Source of the DNA: Gammaproteobacteria bacterium
Lineage (GTDB): Bacteria > Pseudomonadota > Gammaproteobacteria > CAJXQU01
Direction: 5' to 3'
Length of the DNA stretch: 64,000 nt
NCBI GenBank assembly: GCA_965224825.1
Contig: CBDDAG010000001.1
Span: forward strand, 691,598 to 755,597
Shown: in pieces, positions 34,716 to 39,030 of the stretch
How positions within the stretch are numbered: position 1 is the first letter of the stretch
Layout of the letters: each line of letters starts with the position of its first letter
The notes under the pieces: model-generated
What the model was told of the DNA's origin: nothing
What the model saw: the letters and a program-made list of their open reading frames with translations, nothing else
Databases searched by the model: none
Position numbers and translations under genes: made by a program

Positions 34716-34919
34716 GATAATTTTCTCCAGAGTTTGTCGGCAACATCCTTGCTGCCAATTGATATTATATTGTTATAAAAGTGAACTCTCTATTATAGAG
34801 GATTTTTGGGGAGAATCGTAGATGAGTTGGGCTGGTTGTGACAAAGAAAAACCTTGTCGTCGCCAATAAATAGTGATTATCTTTATAAGATGTAGGAGCT
34901 TTTTTTATTTACATGAAAT

Positions 34920-36686
34920 TTATTTAACTGAATCGTAATGTGTAATGGCGGCAGAAATACGGTCTAAGAGAGGCTTTAGTCCATTAAAATTAATAGAGCT
35001 TTTCTGTGCTTTAATAACATGTTTTGCAAATGTGATCTTACTCAAATCGGTTTCATCATTTCGTTTATCAACTGTATTAAAGCATTTTCCATTGTGCTTA
35101 ATTAACTGTGTTGCGTTATCAAATAGACATTCTATGTCAGTCTCATCACCTGTTGGGCTTAATGGAGATAAAACAATATACAAATTATGTATTACATGAA
35201 TAAAATCTGCGTTGTGAAAATCATCTTTCTTTAGAGTAGTGGGTACACAGTATGTTGAGTCATTTTTTTTAAGTTTATTAGCTATGGCATCTGAGAAACC
35301 TGAATCATGATCTAACACGATAATAACTGGATATTGAGGTTTTGGTGCTTTATAGAAAACGTAATGTTTATCAAACTTATCAATGAAACTATAAAGATAT
35401 GATGTACCACCATGAAGTTGTAATAAAAATTTCGTGCGCTTTGAATACTCAACAAAACGGATTAGCAGTTTATAAGCACTATCTTTAGTTTTAGCGTCAG
35501 CGAGTTTTGGATAATCTTTTGCTAACTCACTAATTGCAGATTTCAGATAAATATTATCAGTTTTTCCTTCAGTTAGGATTGTTGGCGTGATATTTCCATA
35601 GAAAAATCGGTAGTATAAAAACTTGCTAAAAGTTTTTTCTCTGCCGCTTAGTAAAGGAATTGTATCCTTTCCATGTTTCGCTAAAGCATATACAGGGTTC
35701 AGCGGTGGCTTTTGTCGTAAACGATTAAATAGATCCACTTGGTCGATAAAGTTTAATTGACCTTCTAGTTCGTTAATATTGCCATCCATTTGATCATCGG
35801 CAGCTTTCTTGATAAATGCACCTGTATGAAATAAAGAATGGCATTGTGATTTAGCTGTGCGCCAATATTCTTTTTTTACATTGGGTTTTTTATTTACAAT
35901 TAGGCCTGTTACATCTTGTCTGGAATCTTTGTACTGAATACGTGTTTTGTTATTATTTATAGAAAAACCAGCTCGTATTATTTCGTTTTTTAGTTTTTTA
36001 CCCGCAATATATTCACCGCCCTCTTGTCGCATGATTGGAGGAGGGAAAATAGACTCACGGGTAGAAAAGGTTATATCGTCTGCATATCTTGAATAAGTAC
36101 ACGAATACTTTTTAGCTAATGATGCAAGCCGTATATCAAGTGAATGAGTAATTAGATTTGTTATGACAGGCGAGCAAGGGCTGCCCTGTGGAAGCTTGTT
36201 ATCATAGCAAGCAATTTGAGCGATAACTGTAGCAATATCAGGACTGAGTTCAAAATTCTTATTTTTTATAAAGAAGCCCCTGACCCGACCAAAATTAAAA
36301 CTATCAAAGAAATTGTTAAGGTCAATGTTAAGTACGTTACTTTTATTCAAGTGCATCATTGCATTGGTAAAAATTGAACGTTCTCGAACAAAACCATGTG
36401 CTAAAGTTGATCTCTTGATTTTGGGGTTTGGGTATTTAACTCGGTTAATTTCATCAATACAATCTAGTAATAAATTAGAAAGTCTTGACTGTAAACTTTT
36501 AAGCTGACCTGTGGGAGCGCATATTATGCGTTTATTTCCATTTCGCTTTGGAATTTCAAACTGAACATATTTGTCAGCAGGTTTTAATATGTAGAGGGTA
36601 TAAGTAAGAGCTGAAGGTTTTACTCCTAGTAATTTAGCTAATGCTGATTTAGTAGTAACTTTTTTTAGCGCATCTAACTTATTCAT
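34920..36686 (-). CDS. retron-type reverse transcriptase fused to a C-terminal Toprim domain (Ec67/Eco2-like)
   Basis: RT motifs NIDLNNFFDSF, LPQGSPCSPVITNL and RYADDITFS (YADD). The C-terminus has ILTEGKTD (Toprim Glu) and VIIVLDHDSG (DxD). 588 aa. The AT-rich coding sequence sits directly downstream of an inverted-repeat-bounded ncRNA. Confidence 0.85.
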   Translation of the reverse strand: MNKLDALKKVTTKSALAKLLGVKPSALTYTLYILKPADKYVQFEIPKRNGNKRIICAPTGQLKSLQSRLSNLLLDCIDEINRVKYPNPKIKRSTLAHGFVRERSIFTNAMMHLNKSNVLNIDLNNFFDSFNFGRVRGFFIKNKNFELSPDIATVIAQIACYDNKLPQGSPCSPVITNLITHSLDIRLASLAKKYSCTYSRYADDITFSTRESIFPPPIMRQEGGEYIAGKKLKNEIIRAGFSINNNKTRIQYKDSRQDVTGLIVNKKPNVKKEYWRTAKSQCHSLFHTGAFIKKAADDQMDGNINELEGQLNFIDQVDLFNRLRQKPPLNPVYALAKHGKDTIPLLSGREKTFSKFLYYRFFYGNITPTILTEGKTDNIYLKSAISELAKDYPKLADAKTKDSAYKLLIRFVEYSKRTKFLLQLHGGTSYLYSFIDKFDKHYVFYKAPKPQYPVIIVLDHDSGFSDAIANKLKKNDSTYCVPTTLKKDDFHNADFIHVIHNLYIVLSPLSPTGDETDIECLFDNATQLIKHNGKCFNTVDKRNDETDLSKITFAKHVIKAQKSSINFNGLKPLLDRISAAITHYDSVK

Positions 36687-36715
36687 ATAGCTAAATTAAA
36701 TCTATCAATTGAAGT

Positions 36716-36840
36716 GGCTTATGGGCACTCTTACGCAATACGCACGCTAAACGCTGAAACGTAACACTAGCATAATGGCAATCCAGTCGGACTTTTTTTT
36801 CACTGATCGCGATGCGCGACCCAAAATCTGCCCATAAGCC
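36716..36840 (-). ncRNA. candidate retron msr-msd non-coding RNA (125 nt between a1/a2 inverted repeats)
   Basis: Perfect 12-bp inverted repeats ggcttatgggca (36716-36727) and tgcccataagcc (36829-36840). a2 ends 29 nt upstream of the RT start. An internal GUCGCG-CAU-CGCGA hairpin lies right after a1. Confidence 0.55.
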
Positions 36841-36846
36841 GACATC

Positions 36847-36875
36847 AATGTATCAAGTATTTATGGTGCCATCAA
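36847..36875 (-). promoter_or_regulatory. sigma70-like promoter for the retron ncRNA/RT transcript
   Basis: On the minus strand, TTGATG, a 17-nt spacer, TACATT, then 6 nt to the first G of a1. Confidence 0.4.
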
Positions 36876-36917
36876 ACTAATTTGATATGGAAAAGGGGAC
36901 GCGCCTAGAGTTCAGGC

Positions 36918-37230: not shown

Positions 37231-37404
37231 AACTTCCCTACATTGTTAGTAATAATAGATACAAAATCCTGATCGCTTTTAAAGCGAGGAGCCATCACAA
37301 AATGTGAGGCACGGGGATAATAACAGAAGAAAATATCGAGTGGCACTGTAGCTTGGATGAAACGTAGTGGAATCCTTGTTATATCCTCCGGAGAGAATGG
37401 GGCG

Positions 37405-38574
37405 CTATTCTTTTCCTTTGAAAATGTTAGCAACCTGGTTGTATTTCAATGATGTAATCCCATCATCAAACTTAAATCCATCACCCGAGTAGACAAGGTA
37501 GGCTTCTGCTATTTTCGGCGAAAGCTCGACAATTCTTTTTAGTCCTTTTAGCAAAGATGATTTATAGGTCGAGCTGGACTTTATTTCTATTGCCACAAGT
37601 TTTCTTCCTTGTTGATAGAGTATGTCGGCTTCATTGCCATTGCTGTCTCTGTAGAAATACAACTTCGGTAATCTACCTTTGTTGAGCTGTGTTTTTAAGC
37701 ATTCTATGATAATCAAGTTTTCGAATAGATTACCCACTAAAGGATCTCTTGATACTTGCGCAGGGGTTTCTATCCCTAATAAAAAGGAGAGTAAACCAAC
37801 ATCCATAAAATAATATTTGGGTGATTTGATCACACGCTTACCAAAATTTTCGAAATAAGGGTTTAATCTATAGATCACAAAGGAGGCTTCCAGAATTGAG
37901 AGCCAGCTTTTAATCGTTTTTGCAGAAACACCGACATCATTTGCCAACGATGTATAGTCCATTAGCTGTCCAATCCGCCCGGCCAGTAAGTTCATAAATT
38001 TTTCAAATAATGAAAAATCTTTCAGGTTGATGAGCTGCCGAACATCTCTTTCTACATATGTTTGATAATAGTTTGAATAGGCCTGAGTTGGTCGTTGGTT
38101 TTGATCATAAATGCGCGGCAGGAAGCCTTGATAAATATAATCCTGAGGTTGTTCAAATTCGATATTAGCTTCGGTTAACTCTGCAATTGAAAAGGGTAAC
38201 AAGTTAAGAATACTTGTTCTGCCAGCCAAAGACTGGGTGATGGCTTCTCGTAATTCCAGTTGGTGAGAGCCTGTGAGTACAAATTGTCCATTCGTTTGCT
38301 GCTCATCAACAATTGTCTGGATGTAACTTATTAGATCAGGAACTCGTTGAATTTCATCTAATATGACGTTTGACTTGAACTGAGCCAGAAATGCTTTTGG
38401 ATCATCAGTAGCAAACTGGCGTGTTTCGGGATTTTCAAGGTTGCTGTATTGGTAAGATGGTAATGCCATTTTTGCCAATGTCGTTTTCCCAGCTTGCCTG
38501 GGGCCTAAAAGAGTAACAACAGGATATTCATCCAGTTGTTTGTGGAATTCTGATTCTATGTGTCTTTTGATCAT
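37405..38574 (-). CDS. AAA+ ATPase with a C-terminal PD-(D/E)xK-like DUF4143 domain (COG1373 family)
   Basis: Walker A GPRQAGKTT, Walker B VILDEIQ, and a C-terminal D...EADIL...VAIEIKSS nuclease-like motif. Confidence 0.8.
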   Translation of the reverse strand: MIKRHIESEFHKQLDEYPVVTLLGPRQAGKTTLAKMALPSYQYSNLENPETRQFATDDPKAFLAQFKSNVILDEIQRVPDLISYIQTIVDEQQTNGQFVLTGSHQLELREAITQSLAGRTSILNLLPFSIAELTEANIEFEQPQDYIYQGFLPRIYDQNQRPTQAYSNYYQTYVERDVRQLINLKDFSLFEKFMNLLAGRIGQLMDYTSLANDVGVSAKTIKSWLSILEASFVIYRLNPYFENFGKRVIKSPKYYFMDVGLLSFLLGIETPAQVSRDPLVGNLFENLIIIECLKTQLNKGRLPKLYFYRDSNGNEADILYQQGRKLVAIEIKSSSTYKSSLLKGLKRIVELSPKIAEAYLVYSGDGFKFDDGITSLKYNQVANIFKGKE

Positions 38575-38655
38575 ATAAAGCAGTTTAAATTATGTTATAT
38601 GGCATATCAAGTATGATATTGCATAACTATGACCAGGTGGGAGGAAGGAAAATTA

Positions 38656-39030
38656 CTATTTAATACCAGTACTTTCTTCGTAATATACAATCAAGATCAA
38701 AACAAGAATAGGAATATTCTTAGTTAACGGACCAAAAGGATGTAGCCAGAACTCAGGACTAATGATTGTCAGAATTATCGTGTAGGAAATAATAATGATG
38801 ATCTGGATCAAGCAACAGGTTTTGATCCATCTTGAAGAGAGTAGCCAGATCCCCAAAATAATATCTGCGAGGGTTCCTACGATGATCAATCCCGTTGACA
38901 TGTTTCCAGTAATGTCTGCCTTCGCTAGGATTTCGTAACCCAGTTCGGGCGCAAGAAATAATGATGTGATCCCTGTGAAGATCCATAGGCCGGATAATGC
39001 TAATTTGGCCAGTAAAATAAAATTATTCAT
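38656..39030 (-). CDS. small 4-TM membrane protein (DoxX-like?)
   Basis: 124 aa, hydrophobic, overlapping the upstream DUF2269 gene's stop. Confidence 0.4.
   Translation of the reverse strand: MNNFILLAKLALSGLWIFTGITSLFLAPELGYEILAKADITGNMSTGLIIVGTLADIILGIWLLSSRWIKTCCLIQIIIIISYTIILTIISPEFWLHPFGPLTKNIPILVLILIVYYEESTGIK

Follow-up and report, generated by a model that had tools for sequence, protein, structure and literature searches.

A probable type I-C retron of the Ec67/Eco2 family in the hypervariable acnB-upstream slot of an uncultured gammaproteobacterium

What kind of element is the AT-rich segment that lies next to acnB in a 64,000 nucleotide stretch of gammaproteobacterial DNA (assembly GCA_965224825.1, contig CBDDAG010000001.1, positions 691,598 to 755,597; the whole stretch is referred to here as the window), and is it complete? 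An earlier note on this DNA had proposed a retron-type reverse transcriptase (RT) fused to a Toprim domain, similar to that of the Escherichia coli retron Ec67 (Retron-Eco2, hereafter also Eco2). Our analysis indicates that the element is very probably an intact type I-C (Ec67/Eco2-family) retron, a self-contained 2.05 kb cassette with its own promoter, a 125 nt non-coding RNA (ncRNA) and one RT-Toprim gene, which was horizontally acquired into a hypervariable slot upstream of acnB and would work by an Eco2-like mechanism. The gene and its parts, in window coordinates, are these:

34920-36686, minus strand: RT-Toprim fusion gene, 588 aa, ATG start, uninterrupted open reading frame (ORF)
35727-36686, minus strand: reverse-transcriptase domain, about residues 1-320
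36075-36086, minus strand: catalytic YADD, residues 201-204
34920-35654, minus strand: Toprim nuclease domain, about residues 345-588
35556-35570, minus strand: Toprim residues E373, G374 and D377
35304-35312, minus strand: Toprim residues D459 and D461; further Toprim residues are E519 and K550

The ORF and the RT and Toprim motifs that had been quoted for it are all present in the minus-strand translation (NIDLNNFFDSF, LPQGSPCSPVITNL, RYADDITFS, ILTEGKTD with E373, and VIIVLDHDSG with D459 and D461), as is the Toprim-bearing C-terminal extension, although this is about 245-270 aa long rather than the supposed 200 or so. The protein belongs to the Ec67 family. It scores 756.8 bits with the NCBIfam model NF038237 ('retron Ec67 family RNA-directed DNA polymerase/endonuclease', curated cutoff 450), residues 4-584 matching model positions 1-572, and 749 and 747 bits over its full length with the PADLOC RT-Toprim_I-C models PDLC02966 and PDLC02963, which are also the sub-models on which Ec67 itself scores best. 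In a search of PDB sequences residues 2-584 align to Retron Ec67 (9LM3, 9I2F, 9I2G and 9S1F; E-value 3.8e-144), and the resemblance to Ec67 in size and architecture that the earlier note had pointed to is borne out by these matches. The window protein and Ec67 are 43-45 % identical. A Foldseek search with the predicted structure returned 9lm3, 9i2f and 9s1f with E-values of 1e-52 to 4e-48; the structure used was a full-length prediction with 121 sequences, and a run on the C-terminal part only (11 sequences, predicted local distance difference test score 52) was discarded as too poor. The RT domain is that of a retron-clade reverse transcriptase with an intact catalytic YxDD, and RVT_1 (residues 45-263, 74.9 bits) is the only Pfam match to the whole protein. 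The C-terminal domain adopts a Toprim fold in the predicted structure, and when its profile was compared with PDB sequences Ec67 was the sole match. Type I-C retrons have been defined as single-gene retrons with the Toprim motifs IV (EGxxD) and V (DxD) (Mestre et al., 2020, PMC7736814). The window protein has EGKTD at residues 373-377 and DHD at 459-461, and the presence of DxD rather than DxE excludes type I-C2, although the published classification of I-C retrons has itself been questioned in the literature.

Residues that mutagenesis has shown to be needed for Eco2 function (PMC12405507, PMC12916289) were mapped onto the window protein by alignment, with the following correspondence:

Eco2 YADD 199-202: window YADD 201-204
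Eco2 E374: window E373
Eco2 G375: window G374
Eco2 D378: window D377
Eco2 D460 and D462: window D459 and D461
Eco2 E515: window E519

Among 77 family members translated from fetched loci, YADD, E373, G374, D377, D459, D461, E519 and K550 are invariant, and EGxxD and DxD are present in every one (77/77). The Toprim catalytic residues given for Eco2 include S513 and 'K562' (PMC12405507). Residue 562 of Ec67 is an aspartate and the invariant lysines are K546, which corresponds to K550 of the window protein, and K558. We suspect that the 'K562' label follows the numbering of the OLD reference protein. Eco2 S513, at the metal-B position, is Asp517 in the window protein; that this substitution is a defect was considered and rejected, since family members differ freely at this position (D 25, A 24, S 9, M 9, K 5 and others), Asp being the most frequent residue.

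The inverted-repeat-bounded ncRNA that the earlier note had placed directly before the gene is also there, as a 125 nt segment closed by a perfect 12 nt repeat. It comprises the following parts:

36716-36840, minus strand: retron ncRNA (msr-msd), 125 nt from the first a1 base to the last a2 base
36829-36840, minus strand: a1 arm GGCTTATGGGCA, forming a 12 bp stem with a2
36716-36727, minus strand: a2 arm TGCCCATAAGCC, a perfect 12 nt inverted repeat of a1
36828, minus strand: predicted branching guanosine, ncRNA position 13, the putative priming site of 2'-5' linked multicopy single-stranded DNA (msDNA)
36805-36821, minus strand: msr RNA stem-loop, ncRNA positions 20-36, with a 7 bp helix
36729-36792, minus strand: predicted msd template, ncRNA positions 49-112, giving an msDNA of about 64 nt, 5'-TCTTACGCAATACGCACGCTAAACGCTGAAACGTAACACTAGCATAATGGCAATCCAGTCGGAC

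The ncRNA lies upstream of the RT gene on the same strand, a2 ending 29 nt before the ATG, and the segment folds with a free energy of -52.2 kcal/mol (z = -4.7), a stability equalled by none of 200 shuffles. A scan of one genome per species yielded 80 RT-Toprim loci from many phyla. At 43 of these, with proteins 56-73 % identical to that of the window, a1 or a variant differing at one or two bases is present upstream, followed by GATTTT, with a2 about 100 nt beyond it and ending 13-34 nt before the start codon. When these sequences and that of the window (44 in all) are aligned, conservation is seen in the 5' half and again in the last 10 nt before a2 (TGCGTAAGAG), and the 40 nt in the centre are hypervariable; RNAalifold, applied to this MAFFT alignment, returns the a1/a2 stem and one msr hairpin. 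The branch guanosine G13 is invariant in all 44 sequences and aligns to Ec67 rG15, the branch nucleotide mapped by experiment (PMC12405507, PMC12916289). The Ec67 ncRNA, which was taken from IMG/VR contigs encoding a 100 % identical protein, reads a1 ACGCATGTAGGCA, G, ATTTGTTGGTTGTGAATCGCAACCAGTG ... GCGAAGGAG, a2 and is visibly homologous to the window ncRNA; counted from C1, the G that follows GGCA is number 15 and thus the nucleotide published as the branch, G15.

The homology extends well beyond the clade of the window element. A covariance model (R1) built from that clade only, with Ec67 excluded, matches the Ec67 msr-msd over its full length (L090:1320-1451; 60.8 bits, E-value 4e-12) and matches at 37 of 37 more distant RT-Toprim loci, each time just upstream of the gene; in all, it finds the ncRNA in 83 of 83 RT-Toprim loci tested. 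In the 64 kb window R1 finds one copy, with a score of 120 bits that lies within the range of the training set, and it finds no match in the loci of retron-less relatives. In the 83-sequence alignment, which was fitted to the covariance model and so favours the structure, 98.0 % of cells in the a1/a2 and msr helices are paired, compared with 81.8 % for shuffles and 29-39 % for slid partners, and compensatory changes occur at 19 of 21 pairs, with 309 double-change cells where 70 are expected; the independent MAFFT alignment described above gives the same pattern. For the a1/a2 stem taken by itself compensatory changes are seen at 11 of 12 pairs with 99.6 % of cells paired (81 distinct sequences), and for the msr helix at six pairs with 99.5 % of cells paired. 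Rfam 15 gave no retron RNA family, either at E <= 1 in the 34-39 kb segment or at the gathering threshold in the whole window and the Ec67 locus; a PhrS-like Rfam match on the terminator of the neighbouring cupin gene was taken as chance.

The ends of the msDNA were predicted by transferring two Ec67 landmarks, the first template base A118 and the stop G52, through the alignment. With the branch G at 36828, this places the first template base at A112 (36729) and the stop at G49 (36792), and the msDNA would then be about 64 nt long. Its 5' end would be TCTTACGC, with A112 as template, and its 3' end would lie opposite G49. For Ec67 this rule returns the published 67 nt msDNA, from dT1 to dC67, and the first msDNA bases are nearly alike in the two elements (TCTTACGCA predicted for the window, TCCTTCGCA in Ec67).

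A plausible promoter precedes the ncRNA at a spacing from a1 that is conserved:

36847-36875, minus strand: candidate sigma-70 promoter of the ncRNA/RT transcript

Its parts are a -35 element TTGATG (36875-36870), a 17 nt spacer and an extended -10 element TGATACATT (36855-36847) that ends 6 nt before a1. The candidate falls below the threshold of a generic promoter scan; TTG and TGnTAnnnT do, however, stand at fixed distances from a1 in 44 upstream flanks that are otherwise unrelated. It looks like an extended -10 promoter from which the transcript would start at or just before a1. At the other end, a scan of the interval that separates the RT stop from the conserved acnB promoter (34716-34920) gave no intrinsic terminator, and transcription of the retron may therefore read through into acnB.

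The boundaries of the cassette are set by blastn breakpoints against two close relatives (L084 and L085) and by junction alignments, these and other relatives having been found through AcnB and their loci fetched for comparison:

34860-36910, minus strand: whole retron cassette, 2051 bp, G+C fraction 0.343

The cassette sits between the terminator of a cupin gene and the acnB promoter, and its content is the ncRNA and one ORF, with no separate effector gene. In L084, the nearest relative (AcnB 99 % identical, DNA 94 %), homology covers the cupin gene with its terminator and breaks off at about 36911. It starts again from about 34859, a point that lies some 60 nt past the RT stop but still upstream of the acnB promoter, which is conserved. 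The same slot is occupied very differently in genomes with closely related AcnB proteins:

Window, L001 and L002 (AcnB 100 %): retron I-C
L084 (AcnB 99 %; slot L084:8127-9854): DRT2 gene, L084:8529-9812, PADLOC Drt2 656 bits
L100 (AcnB 98 %): Spond_N-domain gene
L085 (AcnB 97 %): unannotated 162 aa ORF
L099 (AcnB 97 %): unannotated 172 aa ORF and an rve integrase fragment
L101 (AcnB 96 %): almost nothing
L086 (AcnB 92 %): unannotated 216 aa ORF

The reading of the earlier note, that the retron was most likely horizontally acquired, is supported. The cassette is a recent acquisition, since relatives with 92-99 % identical AcnB lack it and its G+C fraction is the lowest in the 64 kb (620 windows of 2051 bp compared; mean 0.425, SD 0.025); that of the RT gene is 0.336. 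No integrase, transposase, target-site duplication or significant junction repeat accompanies the retron cassette, and the search for junction repeats returned chance-level matches and a low-complexity 10 nt T/A run only. The DRT2 gene of L084 has the same geometry toward acnB as the retron has in the window. In a more distant relative (L088, AcnB 89 %) the acnB neighbourhood is riddled with insertion sequence elements (several IS110-type and rve-type transposase genes), unlike the clean swap in closer relatives.

Upstream of the cupin gene lies a second variable gene:

37405-38574, minus strand: AAA_14/DUF4143 ATPase gene, PADLOC candidate PDC-S01, 331 bits

It belongs to an indel at 37346-38672 that is absent from L084 and identical in the retron-less L100, and a homologue is found at only 2 of about 80 other RT-Toprim loci, where it is distant in sequence and kilobases away. 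The ATPase gene is a separate strain-variable insertion, independent of the retron. The AT-rich island described in the earlier note does have its lowest G+C content in the cassette, but the unit is 34860-36910 and not 34.7-38.6 kb; the supposed island is really two separate variable sites, because the cupin gene between them is conserved core and the ATPase is an indel of its own. Elsewhere in the window, a cspA thermoregulator RNA element (Rfam RF01766; 25626-25956, minus strand; 98 bits, gathering score 78) is found upstream of a cold-shock gene.

Besides the 1.74 Mb source contig, three further contigs, from different samples, encode an identical protein in the same context, and the closest named AcnB proteins are from metagenome-assembled genomes of Gammaproteobacteria. 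The nearest other RT-Toprim protein is 75 % identical to that of the window. In a family search, 5736 of the candidates that were scored reached E <= 1e-20, and the window element falls in a large clade that is sister to Ec67 and is, by number, the main branch of the Ec67 family. With none of the 80 species-representative loci does Ec67 share more than 48 % identity, and the prototype is therefore an outlier of its own family. A member of the window clade is carried by about 10 % of complete E. coli genomes (554 of 5426). This member, WP_001583222.1, has 611 aa, is 55.7 % identical to the window protein and 41 % identical to Ec67, is annotated 'retron Ec67 family' and is accompanied by an ncRNA of the same family (125 bits on R1). 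It is located in a P2-like prophage, by pinE, tail-fibre genes and a GIY-YIG gene (L089, NZ_CP128596.1 3868352-3870339). A literature search found no publication on this 611 aa RT-Toprim retron, and the phage collection searched held no close relative of Ec67 or of the window protein.

How the element would act can be proposed from Eco2, the one family member for which it has been established that defence needs the active sites of both RT and Toprim, that msDNA cages a trimer, that phage nucleases activate it and that tRNA is cleaved (PMC12916289, PMC12405507). By homology, the RT domain would bind the folded ncRNA, prime from the 2'-OH of G13 (36828), directly 3' of a1, and copy the msd template, beginning at A112 and ending near G49, yielding a branched msDNA of about 64 nt. 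The bound msDNA would keep RT-Toprim protomers together as an oligomer, with the active site of Toprim caged and inactive. The msDNA would be degraded by a phage DNA endonuclease whose targets are single-stranded or host DNA (in coliphages, DenB or A1), and the uncaged Toprim domain would then cut tRNA acceptor stems and other RNAs, so that translation would shut down and the infection be aborted. The element would in this way function as an msDNA-caged tRNase freed by phage nucleases. For the window element the oligomeric state, the identity of the trigger and the RNA specificity are the least secure parts of this proposal.

Several observations weigh against so close a parallel, or against a functional element altogether. 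The window protein is only 43-45 % identical to Eco2 and belongs to a different clade, and a literature search found no experiment on it or on any member of its clade. The equivalent of the Eco2 trimer-contact loop (Eco2 residues 325-347) is not conserved and has low confidence in the predicted structure, so the oligomeric state could differ from that of Eco2, and the Eco2 triggers DenB and A1 belong to coliphages. The variable msd segment folds as a single hairpin in 33 of 44 sequences, but in per-sequence folding it is not significantly more stable than shuffles (mean z -0.6), and we therefore claim no supported msd hairpin. In Eco2 the msd part forms a three-way junction between protomers and not a hairpin (PMC12916289). 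Of the profiles by which the earlier note had proposed to check its reading, RVT_1 matches but the generic Pfam Toprim models are silent, at E <= 0.1 for the whole protein and at E <= 10 for the C-terminal domain; because the I-C Toprim has been described as a separate lineage (Mestre et al., 2020, PMC7736814), we do not take such a match to define membership. Finally, there is no evident Shine-Dalgarno sequence before the RT start codon, and an 11 nt perfect inverted repeat (36688-36698 and 36630-36640) pairs the region upstream of the start codon with codons 16-19. This hairpin is specific to the window, where the start site is predicted to be unpaired with a probability of 0.13 (median for 45 relatives, 0.51); it may serve to attenuate translation or may be due to chance. 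With the start codon occluded and the Shine-Dalgarno sequence not evident, the level of expression is uncertain.

These points bear differently on the alternatives. That the element is a type I-C retron whose output or trigger is unlike that of Eco2 (cutting DNA, as the OLD/Eco8 effector does, or another class of RNA, responding to a trigger other than DenB or A1, or assuming a non-trimeric form) is an unlikely proposal, but one with which the low identity, the separate clade, the unconserved trimer-contact loop and the hypervariable msd sequence would all agree. The closest non-retron structural match is moreover a DNA-cutting OLD nuclease, and Eco2, too, is set off by unidentified triggers in several families of phage. 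Yet all the catalytic residues and the ncRNA architecture are common to the window element and Eco2, and both the conserved bases adjacent to the branch and the first msDNA bases given above are nearly the same. A broader proposal combines such a functional difference of the window clade (in trigger, oligomer or RNA target) with the view that the cupin-acnB slot is a recombination hotspot which swaps compact single-gene RT defence cassettes (retron I-C, DRT2) and other cargo by a route that involves no integrase, transposase or target-site duplication; we offer the combination tentatively, and consider it rather unlikely as a whole.

A relic that is decaying or silent, and has lost its function or expression, could explain the window-specific start-codon hairpin, the lack of an obvious Shine-Dalgarno sequence and the Asp at the Eco2 S513 position, but we consider it very improbable: the 588 aa ORF is uninterrupted in AT-rich DNA and every catalytic residue is intact, position 517 is one at which Asp is the commonest residue of a freely variable set, the ncRNA score is within the range of the training set and its promoter elements are in place, and the identical protein recurs in different samples. 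Slightly less probable still is a two-gene system in which the retron acts with the ATPase, in the manner of type I-A and I-B retrons and their ATPase partners. The ATPase gene shares the strand of the retron and is found 720 bp upstream; it represents a candidate defence family and is, like the retron, a strain-variable indel; however, a conserved core cupin gene with its own terminator stands in between and type I-C retrons are single-gene by definition (PMC7736814). The ATPase was rejected as a partner on its separate indel, its identical presence in L100 and the absence of linkage at other RT-Toprim loci. That another class of RT (a group II intron maturase, DRT, Abi or a type XI or XII retron) has been misread as RT-Toprim has a negligible probability. 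The RT domain does score on the PADLOC type XI and XII retron models (330-340 bits, residues 4-318 only) and on the TIR-retron model NF042941 (288.5 bits, cutoff 600, residues 14-317 only), but these matches do not extend beyond residues 4-318 and stay under the curated cutoffs, as do those to other models, also in the RT half only (score/cutoff: St85-type 189/235, group II intron 48/300, Drt2 37/390). The model cutoffs and the C-terminal domain, which matches only Ec67, refute this reading. An intact type I-C retron with an Eco2-like mechanism is accordingly the explanation that we prefer.

As a retron, the element adds little to a family that is known, curated and mechanistically solved: since a curated NCBI model exists, a standard annotation pipeline would name the gene, and the mechanism of the prototype Eco2 was solved in 2025-2026. 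Of wider use is the Ec67-type ncRNA, which is conserved across many phyla sufficiently for detection by a covariance model and for which we found no family in Rfam 15; msDNA boundaries are therefore predictable for hundreds of uncharacterised type I-C retrons. Most members of the family fall in the window clade, among them the prophage-borne retron that about one in ten E. coli genomes carries, and it is the outlier, Eco2, that has been studied. The slot upstream of acnB is a clean case, in nature, of a single locus at which near-identical genomes have alternative defence cassettes, a retron or DRT2.

Among known systems, DRT2 is likewise a defence system of one RT gene preceded by an ncRNA, and it occupies the identical slot in L084, but its RT belongs to an unrelated clade (Drt2 model, 37 bits with the window protein), it has no nuclease domain and its published mechanism is different. 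The OLD nucleases and the OLD effector of retron Eco8 (type I-B2) have an N-terminal ABC ATPase, are separate polypeptides and cut DNA, whereas the window protein has no ATPase domain, its N-terminal part being an RT to which the Toprim domain is fused. Retrons of types XI (RT-protease) and XII (RT-TIR) contain the closest RT domains outside type I-C and share the design of RT and effector in a single polypeptide, but their C-terminal effector is a protease or TIR domain where that of the window is Toprim, and the window protein does not reach the curated XI/XII cutoff. E. coli WP_001583222.1 is of the window's own clade, but is prophage-borne and has a 23 aa insertion in the N-terminal region of the RT. 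Eco2 (type I-C1, E. coli) is also prophage-borne, whereas the window element occupies a chromosomal hotspot of an uncultured marine-type environmental gammaproteobacterium, and the two differ at Eco2 S513 and in the trimer-contact loop. They nevertheless have the same single-gene RT-Toprim architecture (586 aa in Eco2, 588 in the window) and share YADD, EGxxD, DxD, the metal-B Glu and the invariant Lys. Their ncRNAs are also alike in order, with a1, the branch G, AUUU, an RNA stem-loop followed by AGUG, a 9 nt single-stranded segment, the template, GAG and a2; the msr stem-loop of the window corresponds to the single RNA stem-loop of Eco2 but is shorter, and the predicted msDNA has about 64 nt rather than the 67 nt of Eco2.

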